Shown piece after piece: positions 577 to 64,000 of a stretch of DNA of 64,000 nucleotides; position 1 is the first letter of the stretch; the number at the start of each line of letters is the position of its first letter. Below the pieces are notes generated by a model. That model was not told the origin of the DNA. It was given only the letters and a program-made list of their open reading frames with translations, and did not search any database. The position numbers and the translations under genes were made by a program. The stretch spans positions 32,001-96,000 of IMG/VR virus record IMGVR_UViG_3300037067_013225; one strand, given 5' to 3'. This DNA comes from a virus (lineage: Duplodnaviria; Caudoviricetes).

Positions 577-2109
577 ATGATGGCAAAATTCAACAAAACG
601 TCTACGATTCCGGTAGCTCAGAATAAAGCTGGCGGCAAAGCATACAATTTGGATTACAAATCAGAAATCGCAACGATTTTATTATCGTCTTTTCTGAATA
701 ATCAATATTATGCAGCCGGTTCGGAAGTAATTAATAGAATTAAAGAAATCGCACACGATCCTAAAACGGATAAAATGTTCTTGGCAAAAACTGCAATTTA
801 TGCTCGAAATGAATTCGGTATGCGATCTGCAAGTCATGTTTTAATGGCGGAACTTGCATCGGAAATGACGATGAATCCGCTTTACAAATATGCCGTCAAG
901 GCAGTATGTCATCGTCCGGATGATATGACGGAAATTCTCTCGTATTATTGGGCGAATGGTGGCTTAAAGAAACCGCACCACGCTCTACTAAAAGGTCTAG
1001 CATTATCTGTGCATAATTTTAACAGATATCAGCTAGCCAAATACAAGGCTGCATCAAAGGATGTTTCATTGATCGATCTAATTCGCATCACACATCCCTT
1101 GTCCAAGAATATTCTAAAGCTATTACCACCGAATGATCTCGTATTGTTGGATGAGCGGCGCAATGCAATTACGGATTTGATTTATGATCATCTGAAGGAT
1201 GAAACATACCAGACAAAGAAAACCGTTATTGGTCAAAGTGATTCTTCCGACGAAGAAAAGAAATCCATGACGGCAGAAATGTGGTCCGATTTTGTTAACA
1301 ATCCGAAGGTAGAATATTTTGCGTTATTGCGCAATCTAAATAATATCGCAGAGCAGAGCGATTCTTCAACGTTAACAAAGGCACTGGAAGTTCTAACGAA
1401 CGAACAACGCATCAAGCGCAGCATGGTTTTGCCGTTTAGATTTGCGGTAGCGCGCAAGCTATTTATGGGCGATATTATGGGACGCGGAAAGAAGGCCAAT
1501 TTTTCTGCGCAGATTATTTCCGCGCTAGATAAAGCGATGGACATTTCATTGAGCAATGTTCCGGAGTTTGCAGGAAAAACATTGGTTGCGGTCGATGTAT
1601 CGGGAAGTATGTCTGCGGATGCAACGAATGCACACATGTCATGTAGCGAGATTGCTGGATTATTTGCGGCTGCTCTATTCAAAAAGAATGCCGATCTCAT
1701 GTCTTTTGATACGCATGGTCGCTATGTTAGGGTCTCTCCAAATGACAGTATTTCTACCATTGCGGAGAAGATTTATAAATCCGGTTCCGGTGGCACATCA
1801 TTTGCGGCGATTTTTGAAACCGCATCTAAGGTATATGATAGGGTGATTATTCTCTCTGATATGCAGTCATGGAAAGACGATACTCAGTACGGATTGAAAG
1901 AATATCGTGAGAGATTTAGTGCCGATCCGTATATGTATTGCGTGGATTTGGCCGGACACGGTACGACACAATTTAAGAACAAGTTGATTACTTTATCTGG
2001 TTGGAGCGAGAAGCTTTTTGATTTGATTAAGCAGGCCGAACAAGATCCGCAAGTAATGATTCATGCGATTGAATCTGTGAGTTTTGGTAGAGCCAGCACC
2101 GCAAAATAG
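577..2109 (+). CDS. Ro60/Rsr TROVE-domain RNA-binding protein with C-terminal vWA
   Basis: AIYARNEFGMRS, RPDDMTEILSY, YQLAKY, ALLRNL, LPFRF, VAVDVSGSM (MIDAS), GGT, ILSDMQ, SGWSE motifs. Confidence 0.95.
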   Translation: MMAKFNKTSTIPVAQNKAGGKAYNLDYKSEIATILLSSFLNNQYYAAGSEVINRIKEIAHDPKTDKMFLAKTAIYARNEFGMRSASHVLMAELASEMTMNPLYKYAVKAVCHRPDDMTEILSYYWANGGLKKPHHALLKGLALSVHNFNRYQLAKYKAASKDVSLIDLIRITHPLSKNILKLLPPNDLVLLDERRNAITDLIYDHLKDETYQTKKTVIGQSDSSDEEKKSMTAEMWSDFVNNPKVEYFALLRNLNNIAEQSDSSTLTKALEVLTNEQRIKRSMVLPFRFAVARKLFMGDIMGRGKKANFSAQIISALDKAMDISLSNVPEFAGKTLVAVDVSGSMSADATNAHMSCSEIAGLFAAALFKKNADLMSFDTHGRYVRVSPNDSISTIAEKIYKSGSGGTSFAAIFETASKVYDRVIILSDMQSWKDDTQYGLKEYRERFSADPYMYCVDLAGHGTTQFKNKLITLSGWSEKLFDLIKQAEQDPQVMIHAIESVSFGRASTAK

Positions 2110-2134
2110 CTATTCCGTCACCTCCTATAGTCCT

Positions 2135-2157: not shown

Positions 2158-2159
2158 TT

Positions 2160-5586: not shown

Positions 5587-5966
5587 ATTACGATATTTTT
5601 GTAGAGCCGCTGGTTGATTATCAGATAATTCCGGCACCTATTGCGCTTTATTCAGATTTATGTTTTCAAAAACGGCCATTTGGACGTTTCTCGTACAATA
5701 AAATAATTCCTCAATATACCGGAATTAAACTAATTCGCAGCCTAGATGATCAATATATGTGGGTTGGCACAGCCGGATTGTGGTCCGCTAAAGTCTGGAA
5801 GAACCAACCATACACAAGTGGCGATGCCGGTTTCGGCTACGAAATTCTAAAACGAGCATCCGTGGTGCTCAAGGGGCATCAAACCTACGGTGTCATGTCT
5901 GATATTCCGGCGTTGGAGCAATTTATTAATAAATCGATATATGAGATGCGCAACCAATATCGGTAA
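5583..5966 (+). CDS. hypothetical protein
   Basis: 127-aa ORF in operon. Confidence 0.55.
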   Translation: MNYDIFVEPLVDYQIIPAPIALYSDLCFQKRPFGRFSYNKIIPQYTGIKLIRSLDDQYMWVGTAGLWSAKVWKNQPYTSGDAGFGYEILKRASVVLKGHQTYGVMSDIPALEQFINKSIYEMRNQYR

Positions 5967-6015: not shown

Positions 6016-6432
6016 ATGCAGCGATTGCGGTATGACGGTTTCGAGGTTGAGTTCGTTTATGATGGCGATCAAAATCTCTTGATCGAATTTGTCGAAATGG
6101 GAGATCGAAGAGATCTCATTGTCGCTCTACGTTATTGGGGAGGCATCCCTCGTTGGACTGGTAAAGTCGGGCAAGTAGCCATACAGGGGAATCAGGCATT
6201 CGTTAAGTGTGATTTCGCACTTGCGCGGAGTTCCGATCCTCTAGGTCAAAGTAAGAACAAAGACAATCATGCATTGCATGAGTTGATTAGATTTGTTCAC
6301 GATGGAGTTTATACAAAGAAGTCTGGTACCATTGCCAAACCATCAGGCTCTATTCCATTTCGTATTACTTCTGGATATGATTTGGAAAAGAGTGGATTTA
6401 GGAATGAAGAATTACAATGGGTAGATTTTTAA
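6016..6432 (+). CDS. hypothetical protein with C-terminal VDF tag
   Basis: Ends EELQWVDF*. Confidence 0.75.
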   Translation: MQRLRYDGFEVEFVYDGDQNLLIEFVEMGDRRDLIVALRYWGGIPRWTGKVGQVAIQGNQAFVKCDFALARSSDPLGQSKNKDNHALHELIRFVHDGVYTKKSGTIAKPSGSIPFRITSGYDLEKSGFRNEELQWVDF

Positions 6433-7243: not shown

Positions 7244-7875
7244 TTGAACAAATCATCGGTGTTGGTGGTTCTGCGGGTGCTGGCAAAAGCACCCTATGTA
7301 AGGTTGCAAGCAATTTCTTCGGGTTTCAACATCTTGAAATGGCCGATCCTTTACGCAAAATAGCCGCAGTGTTTCAGGCTGATGGGTACGGTTACGAACC
7401 GGCCATAGATTATGCCGATCTGCATCTGGCCTTGGTTAATGCCGGATATATTTTGGATGCGCACGAAACCACTATCGGGTTGAATAAAATTTTAGCGATG
7501 TTTGATATGGTTAACGAATATCGCGAAACAAAATCGGTTCATGATAGAGCCTTTGTGCAGTTTTTAGGTACGGAAGTCATGCGGCATTTGTTTGGTGAAA
7601 ACGTTCATTGTAATGCAGTATGGTCTAATTTACAGCCCTTGGCTCTACCAAAAAAACTTATTATTGGTAGTATACGGTTTCAGAACGAATATGATTTTTG
7701 GAAATCTAAAGCGATTAAATATAGCCAGATTATTATAGATCGTAAAACACCGCAATTAAATCATATTAGTGAGGTATGGTATAGGAGTTTTTCTGGCGAG
7801 AAAACAATCATTAAAAATGACGGATCGATGGCCGATTTCGTTAAAGATTGTGCATACACTATACAAAATATCTAG
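7240..7875 (+). CDS. deoxynucleoside monophosphate kinase-like
   Basis: IIGVGGSAGAGKST P-loop, MADPLR, R..VQFLGTEVMR, IRFQNE, HISE, IKNDGS. Confidence 0.85.
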   Translation: MIEQIIGVGGSAGAGKSTLCKVASNFFGFQHLEMADPLRKIAAVFQADGYGYEPAIDYADLHLALVNAGYILDAHETTIGLNKILAMFDMVNEYRETKSVHDRAFVQFLGTEVMRHLFGENVHCNAVWSNLQPLALPKKLIIGSIRFQNEYDFWKSKAIKYSQIIIDRKTPQLNHISEVWYRSFSGEKTIIKNDGSMADFVKDCAYTIQNI

Positions 7876-8972: not shown

Positions 8973-9914
8973 ATGCGGAAGAAATGTATTCTTGTGGGAA
9001 GCGTTGGTTCAGCTAGGGCGATGTGTTCGACTATCGGATTATTCTATGCTCTCAAATATTATGATTTCGATATCATCGGTATGACGGGTGTTTCTGGTGG
9101 ATCTATCGCGTTACCTTTATTGGCTCAAGATATTTCTATTAATGAATTGGTCCAGACCATTTCAACCGTAGATGGTTCTAAGATACAGGATCAAGATATC
9201 ACCCAGCAGGCAATAGATTGGGTCAGAAATAAATTGGGGATGAAGCGCAAGGGCGATGTTCCATTTACTGGCGTGTTTCGCGGTAATGGGCTGAAGGGAG
9301 AGCTAAAAAAGGTATACGCAAAATATAATGCTTTAACATTTGAAAATGCTAAAATACCATTTAGTGTTATAGCTACCAAGATCGCCATTCCGGAACAATA
9401 CGTTGCTATTACAGAACAAAATCCACATATTACTTTTTTAAATGCGATAACTCGCAATTTTAAAGAAGTATTCAAACATGGTGATGTGCTATGTCCTGTT
9501 AGAGCCTCCACTGCCATTCCTCTAATTTTCCGTCCTGAGAAGATCAACCGGTGTTTGTACGTTGATGGTGGTGCGGTAGAGAGTATCCCGGTGTGGTCTG
9601 CGATACAAGAATATGGTAAATATGATGTATTCGTGGCGGATGCGACTGGAGATATTCTAACGGAGCCAATGTTTGCAGATGATGTTGATTCCCTGATTGA
9701 GATTGGTGTTGCCACCATACACAGCATTATCCGAGAATCCTCATTGCAGAAGTTAAATCAATCCATGACTCTATTAAATTCCATTTCAAAACAAATCGTT
9801 TTAGTTAAACCTAAAATTAAAGTTGGTATGACCGAAGTAAAACAATATGAGCCTGCGATTATGCAAGCTTATGATTATGCCCTGAAATATATTCCGGAGG
9901 TATATAGTGTCTGA
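8973..9914 (+). CDS. patatin-like phospholipase
   Basis: GVSGG nucleophile elbow, RASTAIPLIF, YVDGG; leaderless start after GGGTACAAT. Confidence 0.88.
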   Translation: MRKKCILVGSVGSARAMCSTIGLFYALKYYDFDIIGMTGVSGGSIALPLLAQDISINELVQTISTVDGSKIQDQDITQQAIDWVRNKLGMKRKGDVPFTGVFRGNGLKGELKKVYAKYNALTFENAKIPFSVIATKIAIPEQYVAITEQNPHITFLNAITRNFKEVFKHGDVLCPVRASTAIPLIFRPEKINRCLYVDGGAVESIPVWSAIQEYGKYDVFVADATGDILTEPMFADDVDSLIEIGVATIHSIIRESSLQKLNQSMTLLNSISKQIVLVKPKIKVGMTEVKQYEPAIMQAYDYALKYIPEVYSV

Positions 9915-10449
9915 AATAGCAGATATCCTAAATGCAATAAGTGCATTTATAACTACTCACGGTATGGGATTGACATTTACGATTATTTGGTTTCTTCTAG
10001 TTATTGGACTGATAGTTGTTATTGTGAGATATTTATTCGCGCAAGTAAATAATACCGATAAAGAACATAAAAAAATACAATCCAATATCGAAGATGTAAA
10101 AGATTTTATTGCGAAACAATCCAATATCAAGACGATTGAGAATAGCGTTATTGCTGCTATAACATACAATGCGGATAAAATTGTTGCGCATATAGATAGT
10201 GTTTATACGGATCAGTTAGAATCCTCATATCATACCATTATGGAGCACATTGATAGATTGGATACGGAATTAACTAATGTTGCAGAGAGATTACGAACAT
10301 TACTAGATCAGGCGCAATTTGGTAGAGCCGAAGACACCAAACAACTTTCTTCTACGCTGGAAGCCATACGTAGAGATTTGACATCGTTGGCGGCGAGTAT
10401 CAGGACCACTATAAATATTTTGATTGATAAGAAGGTTGGAGATGAATAA
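9907..10449 (+). CDS. membrane protein (single TM plus coiled coil), possibly holin-like
   Basis: N-terminal TM, helical C-terminus. Confidence 0.5.
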   Translation: MSEIADILNAISAFITTHGMGLTFTIIWFLLVIGLIVVIVRYLFAQVNNTDKEHKKIQSNIEDVKDFIAKQSNIKTIENSVIAAITYNADKIVAHIDSVYTDQLESSYHTIMEHIDRLDTELTNVAERLRTLLDQAQFGRAEDTKQLSSTLEAIRRDLTSLAASIRTTINILIDKKVGDE

Positions 10450-10577: not shown

Positions 10578-11138
10578 ATGAGTTTAAGAATTCGAAATGA
10601 TGTTCTAGCCATTGATCCCAGCTTAAAGGCTACAGGATACTGTCACTCGTTGTCGGATTATGGTACGCTGAAGTTCTCCCGCACCACCGATAATTGCAAG
10701 GATATCGGCACGATATATCACAGTTTAAGCACCCTCATAACGACCCTCGGCTCTATTAAATATATCTGTAAGGAAAATTACGCTCTAGGATATCATAATG
10801 CAGGTATGACGAGAATTATGGAAGTTGGCGGTGTTATTCAGTTGTTATGTTTTGAACACGATATCAAGCTAATAACTATTGCACCAACCAGCATCAAGAA
10901 AATCATAACTGGTTGTGGTAGCGGAAAGAAAGACGGAGTGATGCGAGAAATAAACACGATATTAAATACACAAATTACCGACGACAATATTACTGACGCA
11001 GTCGCGATTTATTTAGCCGGATGTGGATATTTACAAATTGTAGAAGACAGACAATTATCGACAAGTATTAAAGTTGCTGATTTATCTAGTGATATTGAAC
11101 AGTCAATTCGAGAGTTTAAACATGGCATGCTGCGGTAA
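10578..11138 (+). CDS. ruvC: RuvC-like Holliday junction resolvase
   Basis: LAIDPSLKATGY, KENY, PTSIKKIITGCGSGKK, DDNITDAVAI. Confidence 0.88.
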   Translation: MSLRIRNDVLAIDPSLKATGYCHSLSDYGTLKFSRTTDNCKDIGTIYHSLSTLITTLGSIKYICKENYALGYHNAGMTRIMEVGGVIQLLCFEHDIKLITIAPTSIKKIITGCGSGKKDGVMREINTILNTQITDDNITDAVAIYLAGCGYLQIVEDRQLSTSIKVADLSSDIEQSIREFKHGMLR

Positions 11139-11355
11139 AGGCTCTAATGTTCCAGATATTTATCTCTATATAGATGATAAGGAATATCATTTGGGTCATG
11201 GCGTTTTATCACTATATCTGAGGGGCTTGAGGCAATTCTATGAAGTCGGTTCTCATACGCTTATAATCGAAAACAAAAAAACACAAAGTCGTCAGCAAGG
11301 TATATTAACTTATAAGAGCGGATTTCCATATCTAAATGGAAGAAGGTTGTTCTAA
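11122..11355 (+). CDS. hypothetical protein
   Basis: Likely start MACCGKG; TAATG-coupled to next gene. Confidence 0.55.
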   Translation: MACCGKGSNVPDIYLYIDDKEYHLGHGVLSLYLRGLRQFYEVGSHTLIIENKKTQSRQQGILTYKSGFPYLNGRRLF

Positions 11356-13395: not shown

Positions 13396-14454
13396 GTGAC
13401 AGAACTAGATCCAAATATCTTGCACGAGTTTAAGGCATCACCGTTAGGGTTTGATGATTTTGATCGTCATATGCAATATGCGGCTGGTTTACACGATTAT
13501 TTATCCGATAATGGAGCTATTAGTGCCGATGGTACTCTAGATATCGGGAAGACTCAGGAATCTTTGCAGGATTTAGATCAGAAAGATTTTGCCAAATGGA
13601 AGAATAGAATGGAATCCGGTTATCTTCCAGTCATGGCGCATATTCAACAATTTGTTGGGAAACCTGCAATAGAGACTAATCCTGGATATTTGTCCAATTT
13701 GGGTTCTTTGATATCATCTGGTCGGGGAGATTTATCTCACGATTTCGCATACGAATTTTCCCCACAAGGTGATCTTAGATATCGAAGCCCCAAGCAAACG
13801 CTTCAAGCTATTACATCCGGCAATACCACATATTTATTGCCGGAAAATATCAACCTAGCAAAAAGAGCGCTTAAATATGCGCGTGATGGACGTAAATTAT
13901 TGCAACTTGCGGATAAGGTTGTCAAAATATCCAATATGAGACCAGGACGGGCGAGTACGCCTGTTGGAGTAATGATGGGCCAAAACGCAGCCGGAATGGC
14001 AGCACTAACGCATGCGCCGGGACAGATTAAATCCAGCATGGCGAAATCTGATGTCAAGACAAACCTATATCTGCTGAACGATCTTCTAAATATAGATAGG
14101 AATAGAGCGGTGGCGCTTGCCAAAAACATTTCGGGTTCCGTTCGCGATGTGACAGCTTTCACGGCACAAGACACCAAGGCTCTAAAAAAAGCTATTATTT
14201 TCACTTGGCATATTAAGAAGGGAACAGACTTTAATAAAGCATACATAGATATAAACAACATTCCAATAGATTACGATTTGTTTGAGAAGAAGCGTGGTCA
14301 GTATTCTCGATATAACGTTGAGCCGTCCATGACATCCATTGTGGAGGAGATTGTAAATCAACCGGCAGATTCAGAGTTTATTGACGTTCTGTTACTACGG
14401 CTAGCACTGGACAATTACGTTGAGGACAAACATGCATATCGTCATCCTGCGTAA
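13396..14454 (+). CDS. hypothetical (probable internal head) protein
   Basis: Leaderless after GGGTAAATT (13381); contains MAKS, LKKA, FNKA motifs. Confidence 0.6.
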   Translation: MTELDPNILHEFKASPLGFDDFDRHMQYAAGLHDYLSDNGAISADGTLDIGKTQESLQDLDQKDFAKWKNRMESGYLPVMAHIQQFVGKPAIETNPGYLSNLGSLISSGRGDLSHDFAYEFSPQGDLRYRSPKQTLQAITSGNTTYLLPENINLAKRALKYARDGRKLLQLADKVVKISNMRPGRASTPVGVMMGQNAAGMAALTHAPGQIKSSMAKSDVKTNLYLLNDLLNIDRNRAVALAKNISGSVRDVTAFTAQDTKALKKAIIFTWHIKKGTDFNKAYIDINNIPIDYDLFEKKRGQYSRYNVEPSMTSIVEEIVNQPADSEFIDVLLLRLALDNYVEDKHAYRHPA

Positions 14455-31215: not shown

Positions 31216-31242
31216 GCAATAAATATCCAATAGAGCCGGTGC

Positions 31243-36321: not shown

Positions 36322-36343
36322 TGGACCTTCCCTGTGTTAAACT
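36315..36343 (+). promoter_or_regulatory. sigma70-type promoter (divergent from HNH gene)
   Basis: TTGACA-17-TAAACT. Confidence 0.7.
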
Positions 36344-36375
36344 GTAGAGGCTCTAAAACTATACCCAGGTGGATC

Positions 36376-38913: not shown

Positions 38914-39004
38914 ATCTTCTCCGTTTATTGGCTGTTAATATCAGCTTACCCCTTGAATATACCCCGTTTTTGTGGTACAATATAGTGGCAACCAGACCGA
39001 GACC

Positions 39005-50214: not shown

Positions 50215-50945
50215 TATCTATAGTAACGCCCATACTTGGTAGGGCGGAATTTATACCTATAATTCGTAAGATTGTCGCATCGCAGAAATATGATAGTTTT
50301 GAATGGATTATTGCCGAAGAGAGAGAAAGTTTCAACGCGCATCAGACCAATATACCAGAAGCGAATTATATAATTGTAGACGGTGGAATGAATATCGGTG
50401 ATAAAAGAAATCTCCTAGTAGAACGAGCAAGTGGAGATATCATTGTAAACTTTGACTTAGATGATTATTATTCACCATCATATCTATCTGCCGCAGCACA
50501 ATTAATCTGCAATTATGCGGCTGTGAATCACGATCCGCTATATCTGTATTCATTGCGGAATAGGACTGTACAAAGAGCCATACGCAGGCCGTATTGGGGT
50601 TCTGGAGCCGTCTATACACGCGATATCTGGGCCAAACACACATATCCTGCCGCAACGGTACGTCAGGGCGAAGACACTGTTTTCTTTCGTAGGATCGCTG
50701 AATTGTACGGTCTTAATCGTGTAGGGGGACTTTTGGCAACCTCACAATTATCGGCGCTGATGTTAGCGATACGTCACGGTGCTAATACTACGGTAGATAA
50801 ACGCCGTGGAAGCGTGATACCGGACAATAGTGCTGAGTTTCTAATGGGGCGGGTTCAAGACAGGGATATTTTGGATTTTTATATGGTTAAAGGAGGTTTT
50901 TCTCGATCAGTGCCTTCAACCGCACGAAGTCGTCGGGTGAGATAA
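50211..50945 (+). CDS. family 2 glycosyltransferase
   Basis: ISIVTP, IGDKRN, ASGDIIVNFDLDDYY, GED. Confidence 0.88.
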   Translation: MISIVTPILGRAEFIPIIRKIVASQKYDSFEWIIAEERESFNAHQTNIPEANYIIVDGGMNIGDKRNLLVERASGDIIVNFDLDDYYSPSYLSAAAQLICNYAAVNHDPLYLYSLRNRTVQRAIRRPYWGSGAVYTRDIWAKHTYPAATVRQGEDTVFFRRIAELYGLNRVGGLLATSQLSALMLAIRHGANTTVDKRRGSVIPDNSAEFLMGRVQDRDILDFYMVKGGFSRSVPSTARSRRVR

Positions 50946-51078
50946 GATTGGCACGTTTGGTTGCAATTTCCGTAATCACAGCATTATAGAACACCGTCAA
51001 CAACTCCTTGGCTCTATAAAGATCGTCTATTTTTTCAATAGCATTTAGAGTATTAGTTTCGATGGGTGTTTTAGACAT
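50887..51078 (-). CDS. small hypothetical protein
   Basis: 63 aa, last gene of the minus-strand operon. Confidence 0.5.
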   Translation of the reverse strand: MSKTPIETNTLNAIEKIDDLYRAKELLTVFYNAVITEIATKRANLISPDDFVRLKALIEKNLL

Positions 51079-51529: not shown

Positions 51530-52202
51530 GAATATATTTTGCCCAACTACACATTGAAATTGGGTAAAGGGATTTCAAAATTTTATAGATTTCTTTAGCA
51601 TATTGACGGATTTCATATTGCGCATGATCGTCTAGGCGCAATTTTAAAAAGCGAATCCAATTGAATAAATTGGCACTGATATATGCTGAGGTATAAATAT
51701 TCACAGGCAACACACATCGCGCTAATTCTTTGGACGTACCCATATCAATTAGCGTTTGATACGAGGATAGAGCCTCGTTAGAGGCAGCAATTAGTAATTC
51801 ACGAGCACCATGCGCCACCGATGCGTCTTTGATTGCGCCTTGGGCTTGTATGGAGGTCTTAGACTGCTCTATTTGTAGGCGTTCCAGAGTGGGGATGTAG
51901 AATTCGTTCCAGATTTTCGAAGAAAATCTACCACTAACGAAATTGAAACTCTGAGTTCTGTGCCTGGTCCACTGATTTGCTACAAAAAGCGGCATTTTGA
52001 CGCGGAAAGTAACAAAGCACTGCTCAAATGGACCGGAATGCATGTTTGCGGCCAAATATTCCAATAATTGTTCATCCTTGGCTCTACTAAATTCGGTAGA
52101 TCGCCGTCCAGCCTCAACACTAACTCGTGCGGCATCACAAACTAACTCATCGCTGCCAACACACTGAATTAACTCTATAGATCCATGATCTAGAACATCC
52201 AT
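51477..52202 (-). CDS. thyX: FAD-dependent thymidylate synthase
   Basis: AARVS, HSGPFE, RHRTQSFNFVSGR, ELARCVLP, LRLDDHAQYEIR. Confidence 0.95.
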   Translation of the reverse strand: MDVLDHGSIELIQCVGSDELVCDAARVSVEAGRRSTEFSRAKDEQLLEYLAANMHSGPFEQCFVTFRVKMPLFVANQWTRHRTQSFNFVSGRFSSKIWNEFYIPTLERLQIEQSKTSIQAQGAIKDASVAHGARELLIAASNEALSSYQTLIDMGTSKELARCVLPVNIYTSAYISANLFNWIRFLKLRLDDHAQYEIRQYAKEIYKILKSLYPISMCSWAKYIHEENISNHNCIGIPSPS

Positions 52203-53089: not shown

Positions 53090-53245
53090 GTGGCAAAAGA
53101 AATACGGATTTGTTATGCGAAGTCAAGTAGAGCCTGGGTGTGGGAAATCTGGGACGATGAAAGTCTACTGGATGAGGGGCTGGAGGACGAAATAACTGAT
53201 GCCTTTGAAGCCGCCAGGTTTGTTCTAGAGAACGATGATGACTGA
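53090..53245 (+). CDS. small acidic protein
   Basis: GTG 6 nt after GGG-TATGAT (53075-53083). Confidence 0.5.
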   Translation: MAKEIRICYAKSSRAWVWEIWDDESLLDEGLEDEITDAFEAARFVLENDDD

Positions 53246-53744
53246 CAAACTTCTTGTTTCATCGATTCCAACAAGAGAATGGAGCTATGCGGATATTCTC
53301 AAGTGGTTGTTTGAGATACGTAGGTCTTGGAATATAAATAATGTTGTCGCAACCACACCGGAACAACTAAGAGATAAGTTAAAAAAGACTGAAGTTCTAG
53401 CTTATATTTATGAGCATTTTTACACAGCAGAACAAATTAAATTAGCAGAGCTAGAGGCTCTACCAAGATACGATTGTTACGATATAATGTATGTAGGGTC
53501 TGATGGCGTTATTAAGATTACTCATAACGGACAGTATGCTATTTTCGCCAAAGGCGTCCTGTATACTTTTTACGATGTTCATGACCCGTTAGTGCAAGAA
53601 ATACTAATCAATTATGTTGATCAATTTACGATATCGGGGCGTAATTATTATTCATACGAAAGTAATCTTATCGATATGAAACACAAAATGCATTTTAAAG
53701 AAAAAGATAAGATATCATCGGATCGATTTTTCCAGGTATATTAG
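53235..53744 (+). CDS. hypothetical protein
   Basis: 169-aa ORF. Confidence 0.65.
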   Translation: MMTDKLLVSSIPTREWSYADILKWLFEIRRSWNINNVVATTPEQLRDKLKKTEVLAYIYEHFYTAEQIKLAELEALPRYDCYDIMYVGSDGVIKITHNGQYAIFAKGVLYTFYDVHDPLVQEILINYVDQFTISGRNYYSYESNLIDMKHKMHFKEKDKISSDRFFQVY

Positions 53745-55984: not shown

Positions 55985-56262
55985 CAGAAATCAATTTCCG
56001 TTAATTCGTATTCTTTACATTTTATTACCGGTATGCCCCATAATAGATGAGGTATCACTGACATTTTTTGGATTATCTCACATTGTTTTGGTTCCGCGTT
56101 TATTACGATTTGGGCGTTATTGTTCTGATTTTTTATAGAAAGAATTTGTGAACATATATTTGCGAATATTTCATTTGCGGTCATGCAAAGAGGATCAACA
56201 TACACCGTGTTTATACCGTCTGATACACCATCATCCAGCCTCGGCTCTAAGAAATTTTCCAT
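55984..56262 (-). CDS. hypothetical protein with C-terminal IDF tag
   Basis: Ends YELTEIDF*; start reassigned to MENFL, 7 nt after the -10. Confidence 0.72.
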   Translation of the reverse strand: MENFLEPRLDDGVSDGINTVYVDPLCMTANEIFANICSQILSIKNQNNNAQIVINAEPKQCEIIQKMSVIPHLLWGIPVIKCKEYELTEIDF

Positions 56263-56367: not shown

Positions 56368-57096
56368 ATGACGTTAATTCCAATTGGTGCAACACTTGGG
56401 TTGCGGTTCGGAAATGATGCCGTAGTTTCAAGAACCGAAATAGAATATTGCACATTAGATCAGATTAAAACATATCTATGGAATCTAGATCTGGATCTAA
56501 AAGGGATCGATGGAGATCCCGAAGATGAAATAAAACGCACATTATCATCCGTAAAAGGGCAAGTAAACGGATGGTGTAAAAACGATTTCAACTATGTGCA
56601 ACGTAGCGAATGGCATGATGGTAGAGCGCAAGATACCATTGTATTGCGATATGCTCCCGTGGTCGATTTAGAATACGTTCGCGCATATAATATCGATTAC
56701 CAGCAATTTTATCAATACACCGGCGACGAAATGATTGTAAGAAATCGTACAGGAATGATTCAGTTCCCCCCGCTATACATTATGAGCAATCCTTATAGAG
56801 CCATCGGCGCATCTTTGAGCGGATTTACCTTTTTCCCCGGTAAAGCTAATATCCAGTTTTTATACACGAGTGGTTTTATGGATTCAGAAGTCCCGCCGGA
56901 GTTTTCAGATGCGGTGGCAAAATGGACGGCGGGACAAATACTGCGCCACGCGGAACTAAAACTCTTTGAAGGCATGCGGCAACGAATCGTCAACGGCACG
57001 CAAGAAACGGGCGGTGGATATAGTAAAATGGGTGATCAATATATCGAGGAGGCGAAGAAATCGCTCCTGCAATTTAGAAGGATCACAATTTGGTAA
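56368..57096 (+). CDS. head-tail adaptor/connector-like protein
   Basis: YCTLDQIK, LRYAPV, YTSGF..VPPE...AV pattern; AAGGAG SD. Confidence 0.7.
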   Translation: MTLIPIGATLGLRFGNDAVVSRTEIEYCTLDQIKTYLWNLDLDLKGIDGDPEDEIKRTLSSVKGQVNGWCKNDFNYVQRSEWHDGRAQDTIVLRYAPVVDLEYVRAYNIDYQQFYQYTGDEMIVRNRTGMIQFPPLYIMSNPYRAIGASLSGFTFFPGKANIQFLYTSGFMDSEVPPEFSDAVAKWTAGQILRHAELKLFEGMRQRIVNGTQETGGGYSKMGDQYIEEAKKSLLQFRRITIW

Positions 57097-57752: not shown

Positions 57753-58345
57753 ATATTTTTTCTTTCGGTATGAAATGCGCTACGACATCCATCGGAATGA
57801 TATTTGCCGTTCCGATATCGGACAGTGTAAGCGAACTCTCCACCATCCAAGGCTCTAAAATTACATCATTCGCAGCGCGTGTATATGATACTCGTGTGCA
57901 TGGTAGGAGATTGTTACGTTTATGTAATCGACGCGGTAAACCATGCTATTATTATTCCGCATATTATGTATCTCCGGATAGGAAAGATCCATATACTGGA
58001 ACGATAAATTTATCTGGAACATTAGTAGAGCGAGAGCTGAGCAGTGGGCGCATAGATTCGGAGTCGAATCCCCGTGTTGGATATATGCCGCCCGTGTTTA
58101 TGAAGATTTTGGAGCCAACATACAACACGCAACGTATTACTGATGAAAAAGGTGAATCTGCCGTGGAAGAGGCTATGGTGACGTTTCCTCCGGTATTTTT
58201 GCCGCGCCGTTGGGATCGTTTTAAAATCGGTGTATTTAATCATATCGTAGTAGAGGAACCAAAAGTAATGTACGATAATAAAGGGTTTGTCTTGGGATAT
58301 CTATTGCGTGTACGATCTCTAACGCCTGCCCTGATAGAATATTAA
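57749..58345 (+). CDS. putative head-closure/neck protein
   Basis: Position after adaptor; PRRWDRF beta-barrel-like C-terminus. Confidence 0.45.
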   Translation: MNIFSFGMKCATTSIGMIFAVPISDSVSELSTIQGSKITSFAARVYDTRVHGRRLLRLCNRRGKPCYYYSAYYVSPDRKDPYTGTINLSGTLVERELSSGRIDSESNPRVGYMPPVFMKILEPTYNTQRITDEKGESAVEEAMVTFPPVFLPRRWDRFKIGVFNHIVVEEPKVMYDNKGFVLGYLLRVRSLTPALIEY

Positions 58346-58892: not shown

Positions 58893-61800
58893 ATGTTTGA
58901 GAAGGTTAACCTACAAACCGGCGCGAATATTTCTGCCTTATGTCTAAACAACATACAGAAATCGTTCGACATATATCTAATAAATCATCAACATGACGGC
59001 GTGGAAGCTCCGCTGATTGATGCAAGATATGTGGATACTGTCGGGTTAGACATCAACCCATTTAATCAGAGTCTCTATGATCATGCACATGACTATTCGA
59101 TACATTCTGCGCACACCGATACGTCAACCAATAATGCAGGTTCAGATAAATTAAGCGAATCCGATTATGTTGAGATCAATCTCATTGATGACTGCAATCA
59201 ATGGACGTTTAACGGATTGTATTGGGAAACATATGTTCGCTTGGGTGAAGCATACGGCGAACCATACATGGTTGAACTACAACCAGTATATGATGGTAGT
59301 TATAGCGATTTTTTCACCAATCTAAATCCAGGTTCTAATTTCGCGAATTTAGATGGTGTTGTTCCCCTAAACAACACCTTGTTAAATATTCATTTAGTAC
59401 CGTGTAATCTTACTTCCACGGGATTCAGTGTCCGCTTATATGCGATAGGTAAAGGGACTCGGCATCAATTAGTCTCTTATGATGAAACTTTGTTCGCCAA
59501 CAAACGCAATGTATATGTTGGCGAGGATATAGCTTTGCCCGTAGTGGGGAATCTTTCCGACGGCGAATTTGAGATCAACTATAAGGGTGGTTTCTCATAT
59601 CTGCCAAAATCTGGAACACTATCTATACGGGTCGATCTGATGCTGAATATTTCAGCAGCCGTTACTGCCAATCGTCGCGAACTTCTGACCGGTGATAGTG
59701 TACAAGCGTTGCCGTTTAATATTGGGCATAATGAATTTTATGCATTTTCCAGTTCTGTCGGTGCATCTTCTGGTATTAATAATGAAGAATTAAAACAATT
59801 GGGATATCTGACTGCGAAAGATATCGAAGTTGTATCGGATTATGGGCTAACTTATCTGGGCGAACAACAGCTAAGAAATATCTCTTTTGACGAGAATAAT
59901 CAAGTTTCCTACAAACAGCGCACATTCGATATCGTGGATCGTTTTAATCAGGAACTATATACGGATGATCTGATTATTCTTAAATCCGATCCATTAGCTA
60001 AAACGTTCATAGTTAATATTACAGAAACAGAGTTTACTCCAGGCTCCTTGGCTCTACAAAAAATACGTAAATTTAGCTTAGCTTTCGAAGATGTAGAGAT
60101 CATATCTAATAATGTTATTAAGGTTAAGGTTGCTGGTGGCAATCTCGTTCCACGTTTAGTTGATGGTTTCGGGAACATCGAATATAGTAATGTTTATCTA
60201 CAAGGTGCCTATGAGGTTGTGGATGATGAACACCTGATTGTTAAAAATGCCACATTTAACGGTATTTCTGCCAAAGATCTATATTATGAACCATCAGAAA
60301 ATGTCTACGTAACTATTGCTGAGGGTGATTCTGTTTATTTAGGTGATGAATCCCCTGTGTCGATTTTCTACGATGATCATAAAATATTGGCAGAAAATCT
60401 TCCCAATATGCCGTCATCTCATTTATTCAATGAAACCATTCAATACAAGACATTAGAAAGCAATATTGCGTCATATCCCAATCTTAGTGAACAATTTGAC
60501 AATTGGGATCAACAATATGCATATGCTAAGAAAAATGTTCGTGGTGCGTTATGCACGAGAATAAAGATCCGTCCCAAATTCTTTAGTATTTCTGAGGGTA
60601 CGACGTTTTTTATTCCTGGTGGCGTTTATATTCGTTTGAAGAAAAATATTATATTGATGAAAAAGGATATCATGACCAATTATGGTGGAACACAGGATCG
60701 TTTCATCATGGATGAGGGACTGAAAACCAACATCAATAAGGCTGAATGTTTCAAAACCCTAAACAGATTAACTTATCATAAACCGGATCAGGCGAGTCAT
60801 TTTTACACCTATTTGAAATATCCCCACATAGATGGCTCATATGAGGAAGCATACGCGGAGATATTTAACAATAACGTCATTAACTATTTAACGAATGATG
60901 TTTTAGATTTCACCAAAAATAGATATCTGGATCGTTATACAATCGGCAATAAATTTGATGGAGCATTCAGCACATATAATGCGTTATCTGGAACACTGAA
61001 ATCTTACCTAGATACCGTAACGAAACGGCGTGTTTATTATATTGAGAGTTTAGAGCCACCCTCTGATATGATTGTGTCTGGTGGCAATAATCCCGATATG
61101 GGGAGCCGTGTCCGAATATTGAGTTATAAGAACCGTCCACTGAATTATTTAGATTCATCCATTGAACCGCAAGATGTTGCGATGGTTTTTGATGATACCG
61201 ATACACCACCTTATGGGGCTTGCAACGATTTATTTCCGGTTTTTGGCACAGTTAAAAGTATTGTAGAACAATCAGACGGTATATGGAATATTAACTTATT
61301 TAGTCCCGCCGATGTAGACGGTGTGAATATTTTGTGGAGTGATGTCGTTTGTCTTAACGATATTCTCAATTCAACATTATTACCGGCAGATGCGGTGAGT
61401 TTAAATGGTGAACCTACATTCTTGTGGAAGAATCCGAAATCGCCCACTATAATTCAACGTGTGTATTGCTCCCTGTCTGGTACATCAACTACGAACAAAA
61501 TCCAAACATTGAACCATAAATATGGCGATATTCCATTTGGTCTGCAACTTTACGACGAAGACCCGACAGCAGATACAATTGAACATTATATGTACATAGG
61601 ATATAGCGTTCCATTCAATTATATAAAGTTTGTTATCGGAACGATACTTAGTGATCTTTTATTGCTTGGTTCCGGTGGCGTGGGGGATTTGGAATACGAG
61701 TATTTGAGTGCTGCCGGATGGTTGCCGATACAATTCCTATCTTACGATATGAACACCAATTGGGATGGCAAGGATTCGAATAGTATAGATTTCGTTGCCT

Positions 61801-64000
61801 TCTCTCGTCCAGATATGAGTGACGATAATCGGTGGTTGTTGTCTACGATTCCTGAGAATCCGAGTGAAAATAAATATTGGATTAAAATCAAAATTCCCGT
61901 TGAATCACATTCCGTTCTGTCATATGAAGATCGTAAAGATCTATATCCCTCATTCCGAGATATAGTCGTTGGTTCCGTATTCGAGGGGGAATGTTCCTAT
62001 ACGGATGGTACCATAACGTATACGTCAACTGGCACAACAACAGGGGAGATTAGGATTGAGGGGCAGGATTTCACAGCATCTTTGTGGGATTATGTTAAAC
62101 AAGGCGATACGATATTCTGGACGGAAGATACAACAGGTGTACGGCGAGTTGGCACCATTTCGGGAACATTCGTTGTTAGTCCCGATGGTGTTTCTATCGA
62201 TGTAAATACACAAGCAGATCTCTCAAGCCATACCATCAGTGAAATATCGATTAGGCGCAATCCATTCGCATTTGTCAAGAATACTAAGTATACTATAGAT
62301 AGGCACGTAAATACTCAGGATGCCAGAGAAAATAGAGCCAATCCGTTCGATCCAGTGGATAGTGCGGGATTTAAACGGAGTCCGGCATATTCAATCAAGA
62401 AACAGCAATGGCTCTTTTATTCGGATGATGCAGCACCAGATGTTTCTGCAACGGCTTTCCCCGCGATTCGAACGGCATATGATCAGTATGAGGTTGGTCA
62501 CTCACCCCAAGGCTCTACTGATATTGATAAACTATTCTTTGATGCTAATTTCATATTTACTTCAGTCAATCCATCAATAAAAGCATCTCGTGTAGACGAT
62601 ATTGTATCTAGTGGTGATACAGTGCGTCTAAATCAACGTCTCTGGATTAATCACTATGCTCCGGCGAACTCTCCATCTAACGATTTGGAACTTTACTATT
62701 ATATTTGCCGACCAGTTGATGAAGACAGATATTATTTAACCGTTATAGCCAACGATCCGTCTTTGCTACCGAATAGCGAGGAGGATCTGAGTGCTTGGAA
62801 TTTAGGTGCATTCAACAACAAATATGGTTATATTTGGAATGAAAATGTACCAATCTTATCCAGATTATATCCATACGAATTACCATATGGTTCGCCAGAT
62901 ACATCTTATAGTTATGATAACCATAGTTTAGATTTCAATCAGCGAATTGAACGATATCATAAAAATAAGAGTGATTCGTTCGGTGGAAACGATGTCATTG
63001 GGTTTATATTCGATACGAATGATATTTTTGAATCATACGATCTGAATAGGCCGGATTTCTACGGACTCACTTACACTCCGAATGGTCAGTTATGGCCCTA
63101 TACCACACCTGGTACGATTAATTTTGATACTGGTGGTTATTATCGTGTGGTTCTACCTATTCATGTAACGAGTTTTGGTGACATTTTTGATAATTATTAT
63201 GCTGGTTCCGGAATACATGGGGGGTTTTATTATTCAAAGCCACGAGCGATTATGACGAAGGAATATGCCATAGATAGTAGCGCTTATCGTGTCAGTTTGT
63301 TGGAATTCCTGAATTCAGCGACATCATATAAGCACGTTGATGATATCGTTAAGGAAGATGCTGATTATGTTATGTTGTTGGATGACACTGATAGATCTGC
63401 CGATATCAATAATATTAGACGTATCTATAATGGTGAATATGATGAATGTTCTCTCGTTATAGATACCAATAATGAACATTATCTGGACATGAGGATTGCA
63501 TATGGCAGGACGCAGGATGATTCGTCATCTATAGATCATTTTTCCGACTTATTAAACAATTTGGTTCCGAAATTTTTAGCGTCAAATAAGGAAGTAGACC
63601 TAGGGAAGAATGCGGATCTAAATGCGAGTATTAGCTATGAATCTCCAGTAGAATATACTATATCGGCGAACAGTAGTGCTAAATCTCTAGCCAATCTAAG
63701 CTTAGACCTGGGTGATGGTTTATATTGTTTTAGCGTTCCGTTGCAGAATATAAAGCATTATAATCCACTCTTGGCTGGAACTCTGTATGGTGTTGATGCA
63801 CAACTTAGCGATTCATATAAACCTGTAGACGATCTATTTAGTGGTGTTAGCGGATGTTATGAAATTACCGGCAAACGGGATTGGATACATCCGGAGAACA
63901 GTCTTATTTGGGCTTTTGGTAAGTTCGGTGGTCGTGCTGGATTATATCTCGCGAACTGGGGCGCAACTGCCGGATTGAATTATGTCAATGATACTTCGGA
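58893..64000 (+). CDS. very large putative virion (tail/baseplate) protein, 3'-partial, over 1700 aa
   Basis: ATG 58893 (MFEKVNLQTG..HQHDG); frame checked open near 60000, 62000 and the window end; absent from ORF track, consistent with no stop in window. Confidence 0.75.
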   Translation, partial: MFEKVNLQTGANISALCLNNIQKSFDIYLINHQHDGVEAPLIDARYVDTVGLDINPFNQSLYDHAHDYSIHSAHTDTSTNNAGSDKLSESDYVEINLIDDCNQWTFNGLYWETYVRLGEAYGEPYMVELQPVYDGSYSDFFTNLNPGSNFANLDGVVPLNNTLLNIHLVPCNLTSTGFSVRLYAIGKGTRHQLVSYDETLFANKRNVYVGEDIALPVVGNLSDGEFEINYKGGFSYLPKSGTLSIRVDLMLNISAAVTANRRELLTGDSVQALPFNIGHNEFYAFSSSVGASSGINNEELKQLGYLTAKDIEVVSDYGLTYLGEQQLRNISFDENNQVSYKQRTFDIVDRFNQELYTDDLIILKSDPLAKTFIVNITETEFTPGSLALQKIRKFSLAFEDVEIISNNVIKVKVAGGNLVPRLVDGFGNIEYSNVYLQGAYEVVDDEHLIVKNATFNGISAKDLYYEPSENVYVTIAEGDSVYLGDESPVSIFYDDHKILAENLPNMPSSHLFNETIQYKTLESNIASYPNLSEQFDNWDQQYAYAKKNVRGALCTRIKIRPKFFSISEGTTFFIPGGVYIRLKKNIILMKKDIMTNYGGTQDRFIMDEGLKTNINKAECFKTLNRLTYHKPDQASHFYTYLKYPHIDGSYEEAYAEIFNNNVINYLTNDVLDFTKNRYLDRYTIGNKFDGAFSTYNALSGTLKSYLDTVTKRRVYYIESLEPPSDMIVSGGNNPDMGSRVRILSYKNRPLNYLDSSIEPQDVAMVFDDTDTPPYGACNDLFPVFGTVKSIVEQSDGIWNINLFSPADVDGVNILWSDVVCLNDILNSTLLPADAVSLNGEPTFLWKNPKSPTIIQRVYCSLSGTSTTNKIQTLNHKYGDIPFGLQLYDEDPTADTIEHYMYIGYSVPFNYIKFVIGTILSDLLLLGSGGVGDLEYEYLSAAGWLPIQFLSYDMNTNWDGKDSNSIDFVAFSRPDMSDDNRWLLSTIPENPSENKYWIKIKIPVESHSVLSYEDRKDLYPSFRDIVVGSVFEGECSYTDGTITYTSTGTTTGEIRIEGQDFTASLWDYVKQGDTIFWTEDTTGVRRVGTISGTFVVSPDGVSIDVNTQADLSSHTISEISIRRNPFAFVKNTKYTIDRHVNTQDARENRANPFDPVDSAGFKRSPAYSIKKQQWLFYSDDAAPDVSATAFPAIRTAYDQYEVGHSPQGSTDIDKLFFDANFIFTSVNPSIKASRVDDIVSSGDTVRLNQRLWINHYAPANSPSNDLELYYYICRPVDEDRYYLTVIANDPSLLPNSEEDLSAWNLGAFNNKYGYIWNENVPILSRLYPYELPYGSPDTSYSYDNHSLDFNQRIERYHKNKSDSFGGNDVIGFIFDTNDIFESYDLNRPDFYGLTYTPNGQLWPYTTPGTINFDTGGYYRVVLPIHVTSFGDIFDNYYAGSGIHGGFYYSKPRAIMTKEYAIDSSAYRVSLLEFLNSATSYKHVDDIVKEDADYVMLLDDTDRSADINNIRRIYNGEYDECSLVIDTNNEHYLDMRIAYGRTQDDSSSIDHFSDLLNNLVPKFLASNKEVDLGKNADLNASISYESPVEYTISANSSAKSLANLSLDLGDGLYCFSVPLQNIKHYNPLLAGTLYGVDAQLSDSYKPVDDLFSGVSGCYEITGKRDWIHPENSLIWAFGKFGGRAGLYLANWGATAGLNYVNDTS

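Follow-up and report, generated by a model that had tools for sequence, protein, structure and literature searches.

A heptamer dispersed through a jumbo phage genome, GGCTCTA, points to a genome-wide signal for the phage's own DNA machinery

Introduction

Known primases require only 3–4 specified bases. Described sites include GGGTC/TGGTC around a 3′-CTG-5′ core for T7 gp4, GTG for pRN1 ORF904, and TTTGGTTA and GTG for the NrS-1 Prim-Pol; they specify 3–5 bases (8 in one NrS-1 site). Priming starts 5′ of the recognition element, which itself stays uncopied. We are aware of no genome that shows genome-wide enrichment of a long primase site, nor of any primase site for which both enrichment and even spacing across a genome have been reported. 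The NrS-1 AEP primase starts 1–4 nt 5′ of an 8-nt recognition site bound by its helix-bundle domain (PMC8718748), and AEP enzymes bind their sites via such a domain (PMC8718748, PMC10345425). Prim-Pols favour purine-purine dinucleotide starts, and CAPP favours the template 3′-R-C-C-5′ (PMC10345425).

Other short words are dispersed over genomes for different reasons. Chi accumulates in phages that depend on host RecBCD, such as E. coli phage LLS and Pseudomonas phage MD8 (PMC12315714, PMC3784561). Chi-rich phages typically carry it almost wholly in one orientation (20:3 and 32:0) and have no recombination module of their own (PMC12315714). The site in these phages is the host's Chi, present about once per 1–2 kb, clustered toward one end and read directionally on one strand. 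The Haemophilus USS and Neisseria DUS occur about once per kb in both orientations and, within genes, in several frames, as a core with an AT-rich flank; they belong to the chromosomes of competent bacteria and spread by uptake bias. T5-like and some Pseudomonas phages have a short asymmetric consensus at dispersed, strand-specific single-strand interruptions, and these sites are few and on one strand only.

Here we analyse the heptamer GGCTCTA in an uncultured, lytic-type jumbo phage, represented by a virus record of 202,677 bp (GC 39.9%); the window is the 64-kb stretch formed by its bases 32001–96000. Like primase sites, GGCTCTA is asymmetric and fits single-strand reading with a start on pyrimidines a few bases 5′. 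The genome encodes an AEP Prim-Pol, and no DnaG-type primase was found. Unlike known primase sites, GGCTCTA has all seven bases fixed, along with flanking preferences; it is enriched 7- to 14-fold and recurs regularly on each strand. It resembles phage Chi in being a short asymmetric word, the most over-represented oligomer and not codon-driven, but it lies in both orientations over the whole genome of a phage that has RecA, Rad52-like, Mre11/Rad50 and Cas4-like genes, and the relatives of this phage have a common core word despite very different GC. With USS/DUS it shares a density of about 1 per kb, both orientations, an intragenic position and an AT-rich flank; it differs from them in its carrier and in changing between related phages. 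Compared with T5-type interruptions, its 186 sites are many, lie on both strands and are known from sequence alone.

Results and discussion

GGCTCTA is exact, abundant and dispersed

The initial annotation had reported about 50 copies of GGCTCTA in the window, roughly tenfold over expectation. All 50 coordinates that it gave were right, but one plus-strand copy (21598) had been overlooked, which brings the total to 51 (34 plus, 17 minus). The strong excess is real and, as measured, slightly higher, at about 13-fold: dinucleotide-preserving shuffles of the window gave 3.76 ± 1.98 copies, with 11 as the largest value. The whole record has 186 copies (109 plus, 77 minus), or 1 per 1.09 kb, where Markov models of orders 0–3 predict 12–18, and GGCTCTA is its strongest outlier among all 5-, 6- and 7-mers. 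The word is exact to the base, since its 21 single-mismatch variants have only 5–51 copies each in the record. Copies in the window, all exact matches (minus copies read TAGAGCC on the plus strand), are listed here with neighbouring elements.

2088–2094, minus, copy
2375–2381, plus, copy
5602–5608, minus, copy
6346–6352, plus, copy
7545–7551, minus, copy
7641–7647, plus, copy
9500–9506, minus, copy
10323–10329, minus, copy
10749–10755, plus, copy
11140–11146, plus, copy at gene boundary (genome 43140)
14178–14184, plus, copy
17120–17126, plus, copy
19084–19090, minus, copy within terminase large-subunit gene
19498–19504, plus, copy
19774–19780, plus, copy
21090–21096, plus, copy in portal gene
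21598–21604, plus, copy in portal gene, the one overlooked
22375–22381, plus, copy in portal gene
22647–22653, plus, copy in portal gene
25102–25108, plus, copy
25992–25998, minus, copy
26613–26619, plus, copy
27484–27490, plus, copy
29104–29110, plus, copy
29593–29599, plus, copy
29950–29956, plus, copy
31191–31208, terminator-like hairpin beside copy 31231
31231–31237, minus, intergenic copy flanked by the hairpin and a sigma-70-type promoter
31243–31271, sigma-70-type promoter (12/12 consensus match), copy 31231 lying 6 nt upstream
33113–33119, plus, copy
35887–35893, minus, copy
36315–36343, promoter-like site (10/12 sigma-70 consensus match) beside copy 36349
36349–36355, plus, intergenic copy just downstream of the promoter-like site
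36973–36979, minus, copy
37260–37266, plus, copy
38338–38344, plus, copy
38872–38878, minus, copy
40718–40724, plus, copy in glycosylation island, the sole listed site matched at the corresponding position of the 220-kb relative
42963–42969, plus, copy in glycosylation island
45385–45391, plus, copy in glycosylation island
47313–47319, plus, copy within GDP-mannose 4,6-dehydratase gene
49538–49544, minus, copy in glycosylation island
51010–51016, plus, intergenic copy (genome 83010)
51768–51774, minus, copy
52080–52086, plus, copy
53128–53134, minus, intergenic copy (genome 85128)
53456–53462, plus, copy
56243–56249, plus, copy
56796–56802, minus, copy
57851–57857, plus, copy
60050–60056, plus, copy in 3726-aa giant gene
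61051–61057, minus, copy in 3726-aa giant gene
62333–62339, minus, copy in 3726-aa giant gene
62511–62517, plus, copy in 3726-aa giant gene

The excess is a DNA-level signal

Genes hold 167 copies, compared with 25 after synonymous-codon permutation (z 28), and frame-aware Markov models of order 1–3 predict 11–21. The excess thus survives both treatments, strong support for the earlier view that the signal lies in the DNA and not in a protein motif. Four of the six reading frames are usable and share the sites about equally (36, 52, 37 and 40); the readings named for them previously (G-S-x, x-A-L, V-E-P and x-R-A) were correct. A stop codon closes the fifth frame, and the sixth requires rare codons. 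Codon pairs that form the word are picked 6–9 times above the codon-usage prediction, and codons overlapping it are conserved in 33% of cases against the relative, compared with 42% for other codons. A dicodon-preserving null, which had been suggested as a test, gave 146 expected copies, although GGCTCTA was still the top 7-mer (z 5.2). This null conditions on too much, as the hexamers GGCTCT and GCTCTA come mostly from GGCTCTA itself.

Copies are evenly spaced on each strand

Copies on one strand lie about 1.8 kb apart, those on the opposite strand about 2.6 kb. The per-strand coefficients of variation, 0.64 and 0.73 compared with 0.99 for random placement, are the two lowest among 55 seven-mers of similar copy number, and same-strand pairs less than 200 bp apart number 2 and 0 where 11 and 5.6 were expected. 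Such even spacing indicates selection for function. It holds for each orientation and not for pooled sites: when orientations were relabelled randomly over the same 186 places, the coefficients rose to 0.85 and 0.88, with a joint P of about 5e-5, so the reader of GGCTCTA is directional or strand-specific. The word is best explained as a recognition signal under selection, specific to one strand and placed by the phage in coding and non-coding DNA alike. Together with the variant words of its relatives (below), it points to an undescribed signal, genome-wide, for the phage's own DNA machinery. The roles first listed (binding, modification, nicking, Chi-like) are all hypothetical, and a directional reader, whether of Chi type, a nickase or a primase (absent from that list), fits better than simple binding.

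A protein that binds double-stranded DNA, such as a nucleoid-organising, compartment-targeting or transcription factor, could coat or mark the phage chromosome through these sites. Their coverage is even and genome-wide, the extended footprint is about 14–16 bp, and intergenic sites of the early region have a common wider context. Some intergenic sites also adjoin promoters, as had been said of copies 31231 and 36349, both of which we found beside promoter-like sites. An orientation-blind binder would not, however, need evenness per orientation; 90% of the sites are within genes, in both senses; and the flank analysis found no conservation at a fixed promoter-like distance. Intergenic inverted pairs (TAGAGC-N10-35-GCTCTA) do occur, but in weak excess (10, with 5.8 expected). 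We regard a duplex binder as quite improbable.

Relatives carry their own words around a common core

The 220-kb relative has only 10 copies of GGCTCTA. Its top DNA-level words are CTCTTTA (204, 60 expected), GCTCTTTA (63, 11.5 expected) and GGCTCTTTA (18, 2.8 expected); its word is fuzzier and evenly spaced on just one of the strands. A 41-kb Logan contig has CCGCTCTA 7 times (0.4 expected), and the word of this relative, TAGAGCGG, ends in AGCGG, while a fourth phage has CGCTCTA 6 times (1.0 expected) and TCTATCT 11 times (1.5 expected). All three relatives have their own enriched word with a common core, CTCT/GCTCT, and the phages compared span GC 32–49%; an unrelated control phage contig had no such enriched word. 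GGCTCTA is specific to this phage and gives way to related words in the others, so its reader is probably phage-encoded. Site positions are not conserved in the 220-kb relative; 1–2 of 80 sites coincide, the only relatives found being at about 40% amino-acid identity. Sampled bacterial genomes have GGCTCTA once per 13–36 kb, and in five from different phyla it is rarer than its reversed control.

These comparisons bear on a Chi-like role, which we consider not very likely. Here a helicase-nuclease moving along the DNA (host AddAB/RecBCD or phage nucleases) would recognise 5′-TAGAGCC-3′ on one of the strands and turn from degradation to RecA loading, protecting phage ends and feeding recombination-dependent replication. 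A directional single-strand reader suits the per-orientation evenness, and the AGCGG that ends the Logan word is the Chi of Bacillus subtilis AddAB. Recombination functions are well represented in the phage, with RecA, a Rad52-like annealer, Mre11/Rad50, a Cas4-like nuclease and a RuvB-like protein. The plus excess begins near the terminase genes. Yet a recombination-rich phage with a 109:77 ratio is unlike the Chi-rich phages, with their single orientation and no such module (PMC12315714). A core common to phages of such different GC would also be hard to square with a host-specified Chi, which varies between related bacteria, and the shortfall relative to the reversed control in the five bacterial genomes speaks against it as well.

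An origin of GGCTCTA in a host sequence of uptake type, or as a side effect of mutation/repair bias or restriction-site avoidance, seems to us highly improbable. Its density, orientations, several frames within genes and AT-rich flank recall USS and DUS, and the genome is heavily edited at the DNA level for restriction avoidance: 17 palindromic hexamers are wholly avoided. But a lytic jumbo phage stands outside transformation drive, and a repair-bias model would require a depletion of near-cognate variants that is not seen. Palindrome avoidance explains nothing more than the lack of G at position −1 of the word (GRGCYC being absent from the genome) and cannot make a single exact, asymmetric 7-mer sevenfold more frequent than expected. 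The even per-strand spacing, which indicates functional selection, and the core common to relatives that differ in GC also count against this reading.

Flanking bases and candidate readers

At positions −4/−3, 26% of sites have CC (background 4.3%), and at +3/+4, 48% have AA (background 9.3%), so that a pyrimidine pair lies on the 5′ side of the word whichever strand is read. Both flanks are thus readable as start sites, so that either strand could be the template, and they fit the Prim-Pol start rules. The A three bases downstream is conserved (74%), and the word has an A-rich tail.

An asymmetric word with these downstream features is also reminiscent of type IIS enzymes, which act at a distance. 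A phage enzyme might nick (as in T5-type interruptions) or modify DNA strand-specifically at or near GGCTCTA, for late transcription, replication restart, packaging or self-marking. Such a strand-specific reader agrees with the relabelling result, and the phage lineage has several HNH-type nucleases. However, this gives no reason for enriched, even sites unless a nick is needed every 2 kb, and no nickase candidate is linked to the word. Modification lacks a candidate enzyme because the sole recognisable DNA methylase, a Dam-like D12 enzyme, tracks GATC (about 900 in G000, none in relatives without the enzyme); a family search found no N6_N4, C5 or N6_Mtase genes in the phage, and the full avoidance of 17 palindromes argues against broadly modified DNA. 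Nicking or modification therefore seems unlikely.

We tentatively favour a priming role, a real possibility that falls somewhat short of probable, in which GGCTCTA copies mark where the primase starts and so determine how far apart Okazaki fragments begin. By elimination and analogy, the reader would be a phage-encoded, directional single-strand enzyme, most likely the phage's own archaeo-eukaryotic-type (AEP) Prim-Pol. The primase would bind GGCTCTA on the lagging-strand template and start the primer a few bases 5′ of it, on the pyrimidine pair, and the density of the word would set an Okazaki-fragment length of about 2 kb. Priming would be largely confined to phage DNA because the word is so sparse in the sampled bacterial genomes, and the enzyme and its word would change in step, so that every lineage ends up with a variant of its own. 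Against this reading, no switch of orientation is seen around any inferred origin, with only a weak plus excess (109:77) concentrated in 50–150 kb of the genome. The putative reader is encoded outside the window.

Genome 163420–164337, AEP Prim-Pol primase gene (Pfam AEP family PF22548)

Its nearest solved structures are of the CAPP Prim-Pol (phmmer E 6e-12; Foldseek E 7e-7). DnaG-type primase was searched for in this phage and the relative and found in neither, and the DnaB-like helicase matches the C-terminal domain only, without the usual N-terminal domain. The AEP enzyme might instead serve only origin priming or repair. Its structural model is poor overall (pLDDT 59), with a C-terminal three-helix bundle at pLDDT 77–91; by analogy with the site-binding bundles of other AEP enzymes, this predicted bundle is a candidate template-recognition domain. 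The orthologue in the 220-kb relative is 44% identical.

GGCTCTA is an exact word of the whole genome

The heptamer GGCTCTA (TAGAGCC on the opposite strand) occurs 51 times as an exact match in the window, 34 times on the plus and 17 times on the minus strand, compared to 3.8 ± 2.0 copies in dinucleotide-preserving shuffles. The initial annotation had counted about 50; the coordinates it listed were all right on recount, and a single plus-strand copy (21598) had been overlooked. The full virus record (202,677 bp, 39.9% GC, estimated to be 91% complete) contains 186 copies (109 plus, 77 minus), with 12–18 predicted by Markov models of order 0–3, and no other 5-, 6-, or 7-mer is as strong an outlier as GGCTCTA. 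Because each of its 21 single-mismatch variants is present in only 5–51 copies, the signal is the exact 7-mer.

The flanks contribute weak information beyond this core. Upstream, positions −4 and −3 favor C, and the pair CC is present in 26% of the sites versus 4.3% in the background (sixfold). Positions −2 and −1 favor A or T, and G at −1 was found in no site, a side effect of GRGCYC missing from the whole genome. Downstream, A occupies position +3 in 74% of the sites, and AA at +3/+4 is present in 48% versus 9.3% in the background (fivefold). A longer repeat or mobile element was rejected, as the flank information is gone beyond about −6 and +6 and a wider context is seen at some early-region intergenic sites only. 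A promoter element was also rejected, given that the sites lie within genes in both senses and are not accompanied by a −10-like element at any constant distance. No preferred offset to GATC or GATATC was detected, and although the 3' half of the tRNA D-arm resembles TAGAGC, this was put down to coincidence. A literature search did not return GGCTCTA in any relevant context, and we know of no described phage equivalent of the pattern.

The word is selected at the DNA level

The gene set consisted of 281 crude longest-ORF calls covering 94% of the genome. Relative to these genes, the word reads in the sense direction at 90 sites and antisense at 77, and the remaining 19 sites lie between genes or at gene boundaries. 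Of its six possible reading frames, four hold 36, 52, 37, and 40 sites; the fifth would contain a TAG stop and the sixth requires the rare codons xGG and CTC. Permutation of synonymous codons within each gene, which keeps the protein and its codon usage fixed, predicted 25 copies in genes where 167 were observed, and GGCTCTA was still the top 7-mer (z 28). Permutation of whole codons predicted 15 copies, and frame-aware Markov models of order 1–3 predicted 11–21. Peptides able to carry the word use the word-forming codon pair in 31–42% of cases versus about 5% expected from codon usage. The proposal in the initial annotation that GGCTCTA is a DNA-level signal was therefore upheld by synonymous permutation, frame use, and the frame-aware models, and a protein motif or codon-usage artefact was rejected on these grounds and on the whole-codon permutation. 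A dicodon-level null, which had been suggested as a check, absorbed most of the excess (146 copies predicted), but only as both hexamers of the word, GGCTCT and GCTCTA, are for the most part pieces of GGCTCTA itself; the word nevertheless still ranked first (z 5.2).

GGCTCTA is also found inside acquired metabolic genes, such as that for GDP-mannose dehydratase. In alignments with a 220-kb relative, codons that overlap the word are 33% identical, whereas the other codons of the same alignments are 42% identical. The word therefore either sits in tolerant positions or has been paid for in protein sequence, and it overrides preferences in codon choice and even in amino acids.

Sites of each orientation are evenly spaced

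When the sites of both strands were pooled, their spacing had a coefficient of variation (CV) of 0.80 versus 0.99 for random placement, and the largest gap was 4.3 kb versus 6.3 kb. The effect was much stronger for each strand separately, with CVs of 0.64 for plus sites (mean spacing 1.8 kb) and 0.73 for minus sites (mean spacing 2.6 kb), the two lowest values among 55 seven-mers of comparable abundance. Same-strand neighbors closer than 200 bp numbered 2 (plus) and 0 (minus) where 11 and 5.6 were expected. Random relabelling of orientation at the same 186 places gave CVs of 0.85 and 0.88, and the observed pair was reached in about 5 of 100,000 trials. Since relabelling destroys the evenness, each orientation is under a constraint of its own. 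Such evenness is a need of a reader of single strands or of one direction, not of an orientation-blind duplex binder. A protein that binds the double-stranded word would fit the promoter-adjacent sites and the wider context common to early intergenic sites, but it leaves the per-orientation evenness unexplained and we regard it as improbable.

Over the whole genome, the orientation of GGCTCTA follows neither gene direction nor GC skew. The skew tracks transcription, and a weak plus-strand excess of the word builds up over 50–150 kb. A replication-polarity switch was rejected because the skew is tied to transcription and the word's orientation flips nowhere. GGCTCTA is a real, statistically extreme, lineage-specific genome-wide word that is even on each strand separately. 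The per-orientation spacing test provides a cheap means to tell directional from non-directional genome words.

Related phages carry variant words

Searches of cultured phages with megablast and tblastn returned Bacillus herelleviruses as the nearest (24% portal identity), and no homologues of the archaeo-eukaryotic-type primase (AEP Prim-Pol) of this phage were found in cultured phages. Public metagenomes contain a small clade around the phage, three members of which were compared:

Relative 1: complete genome of 220,861 bp, 31.7% GC, 99 reciprocal orthologues, mean identity 40%
Relative 2: 41 kb of a 71.6-kb Logan contig, 37% GC
Relative 3 (the fourth phage): two short contigs, about 49% GC

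JGI contigs encode closer proteins (portal of 58% identity on a 134-kb contig, AEP of 68% identity on a 17.8-kb contig); a metagenome scan for closer relatives returned the 220-kb relative alone. GGCTCTA is present in only 10 copies in that relative. Conservation of sites at synonymous positions had been proposed as a further check, and 1–2 of 80 GGCTCTA sites in aligned orthologues coincide with the 220-kb relative's own word, a result that at 40% identity is uninformative.

The same synonymous-shuffle test was applied to each relative. The top words (seen versus expected) were CTCTTTA (204 vs 60), GCTCTTTA (63 vs 11.5), and GGCTCTTTA (18 vs 2.8) in the 220-kb relative; CCGCTCT (11 vs 1.2) and CCGCTCTA (7 vs 0.4) in the Logan contig; and TCTATCT (11 vs 1.5) and CGCTCTA (6 vs 1.0) in the fourth phage. 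A more distant control phage contig had no comparable enriched word. In the relatives the words are less sharply defined, and in the 220-kb genome only one strand has even spacing. Because a CTCT/GCTCT core is common to phages of such different GC content, the sequences suggest that the reader is inherited by the phages and not supplied by their presumably different hosts. Related phages of 32–49% GC carry different words, an argument against an uptake sequence tied to one host lineage. We regard an uptake sequence, a repair bias, and a by-product of restriction avoidance as very unlikely explanations.

Few functional short words shape entire genomes; Chi, uptake sequences, and KOPS are examples, and every one of them gave rise to a field of its own. 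GGCTCTA is unusually clean in being an exact 7-mer at 7–14 times expectation that is replaced by variants in related phages.

Restriction-site avoidance and GATC methylation

Avoidance of restriction sites in this phage genome is extreme. Seventeen 6-bp palindromes, each expected 12–61 times, have zero copies in 203 kb; they are the sites of StuI, ScaI, PvuII, SmaI, SacII, PvuI, EagI, BsiWI, XhoI, PstI, SacI, NaeI, NarI, ApaI, SalI, ApaLI, and MscI. GGATCC is present once with 69 copies expected, and no GRGCYC occurs. Most of the absent set is common to both relatives (23 and 35 absent hexamers). One methylase gene was located:

Genome 151876-152613, minus strand: D12 (Dam-like) methylase, outside the window

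No gene of the DNA methylase families N6_N4, C5, or N6_Mtase was found in the phage, and the D12 enzyme is the sole DNA methylase recognized in it among known families. This phage, the only one with a D12 methylase, keeps about 900 copies of GATC. The 220-kb relative and the 41-kb Logan contig would be expected to have 460 and 116 copies, but they and the SRR22279389 contigs have none at all. Because only the phage that has the enzyme keeps the site, these data suggest that it swapped GATC avoidance for self-methylation.

Methylation of GGCTCTA itself was rejected, as no methylase of matching asymmetric specificity was found among known enzyme families and the presence or absence of D12 tracks whether GATC is kept or lost. 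That the word is a nicking or base-modification site, as the initial annotation had included among its possibilities, appears rather unlikely, for this reading is without a candidate enzyme and the single methylase accounts for something else, namely GATC. A second DNA-level enriched word was detected, GATATC, with 319 copies versus about 150 after synonymous shuffling. It often lies within (A)CGATATC, 60% of its copies are in frame as GAT-ATC, and its spacing is random (CV 1.08), with no fixed relation to GGCTCTA.

A primase is the leading candidate reader

Outside the window, the region for replication and recombination encodes the following:

Replication: DnaE-type polymerase III alpha, 305-residue AEP Prim-Pol, DnaB-like helicase (match limited to the C-terminal domain)
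Recombination: Rad52-like annealing protein, Mre11- and Rad50-like proteins, Cas4-like nuclease, RuvB-like protein, RecA
Further genes: sigma factor, ribonucleotide reductase, SNF2-type helicase, one D12-class (Dam-like) DNA methylase
Genome 163420-164337: AEP Prim-Pol, Pfam PF22548, matching CAPP Prim-Pol by sequence and fold

The recombination genes bear on the main rival reading, a Chi-like signal that is read directionally. In Chi-rich phages, which are without a recombination module of their own, Chi is nearly all in one orientation (PMC12315714), whereas this phage is the opposite on both counts, with RecA, Rad52-like, Mre11/Rad50, Cas4-like, and RuvB-like proteins and an orientation ratio of 109:77. 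Chi is directional as well, and phages can accumulate it to similar densities (PMC12315714). However, a host-specified word fits poorly with a core common to the relatives. In five bacterial genomes of different phyla GGCTCTA shows no excess, occurring once per 13–36 kb, more rarely than the reversed control. A search of prokaryote genomes with the phage Gmd (GDP-mannose 4,6-dehydratase) gave identities of at most 49% across many phyla, and the phage genome has one tRNA only. We consider a Chi-like role unlikely.

The AEP Prim-Pol is a candidate for a primase that could read GGCTCTA. It matched CRISPR-associated Prim-Pol structures with E values of 6e-12 by sequence and 7e-7 by fold, and its orthologue in the 220-kb relative is 44% identical. 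A DnaG-type primase was found in neither of these two phages. In AEP primases the template recognition site is bound by a helix-bundle domain, and the NrS-1 enzyme uses an 8-nt site and starts 1–4 nt on its 5' side (PMC8718748). A C-terminal three-helix bundle is predicted for the phage protein (residues 241–298, pLDDT 77–91) within a whole model that is weak (pLDDT 59); no homology of this bundle to known helix-bundle domains emerged. A Prim-Pol primer opens with two purines, set opposite a pair of pyrimidines, and the best template for CAPP is 3'-R-C-C-5' (PMC10345425). Both strands of the word have a pyrimidine pair on their 5' side, CC before GGCTCTA and TT before TAGAGCC. Together with the per-strand evenness, these flanks are consistent with the published start rules (PMC10345425; PMC8718748). 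Because the flanks offer the pyrimidine pairs that such rules require, we tentatively rank primase start signals first among the mechanisms, a link that rests on elimination and analogy. The density of GGCTCTA would then set a lagging-strand fragment length of about 2 kb, and priming would be confined to phage DNA, given the rarity of the word in the sampled bacterial genomes.

To our knowledge there is no earlier case of a genome tuned to the specificity of its own primase. If GGCTCTA marks primase starts, this would be the first such genome known and would make it possible to approach Okazaki-fragment spacing from sequence; should GGCTCTA instead be a signal of the Chi or nicking type, it would be a new recognition sequence with a new reader, both from an uncultured clade of jumbo phages. 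A broader reading, possible but doubtful, joins these elements into a private replication address code. The Prim-Pol would start lagging-strand primers solely at GGCTCTA, and the genome would have been edited to carry the word about every 2 kb per strand because primers start only there. The phage replisome would be effectively blind to host DNA, and primase and word would co-evolve so that each lineage of the clade has its own dialect (GGCTCTA, CGCTCTA, CCGCTCTA, GCTCTTYA). Were such a code confirmed, it would amount to self/non-self discrimination at the level of replication, and possibly to a barrier between co-infecting relatives.

Other loci

Two further features of the window were annotated:

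Window 38972-50945: GDP-sugar/glycosyltransferase island
Window 58893-64000 and beyond (genome 90893-102073): giant 3726-aa ORF, no family match over the part tested

The island contains a DegT-type enzyme, DUF4910/M28, a SAM methyltransferase, Gmd, a nucleotidyltransferase, and a phosphomannomutase. It is 46–71% identical to its counterpart in the 220-kb relative (genome mean 40%), where it is inverted, and has the lowest density of GGCTCTA (0.42 per kb). Orthologues of the giant ORF in the relatives are 4550 and 3560 aa long. The ORF at window 577-2109 has a match to a PHROG whose annotation is RNA-binding protein. In the Logan relative, a PhoH-like gene carries an intein/homing-endonuclease insertion (Hom_end and LAGLIDADG matches; L026:8164-10026, where L026 is the SRR30862820 contig).

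In the early region, outside the window, intergenic copies of GGCTCTA are accompanied by an upstream inverted near-copy, TAGAGC-N10-16-GCTCTA (genome 11778-11799, 15893-15920, and 26200-26227). Several intergenic sites also have the wider context AAC-NGCWW-GGCTCTA-WGAA in common. Paired and wider-context sites alike may be special ones, for example origins or regulatory elements, and not of the same kind as the dispersed single copies.
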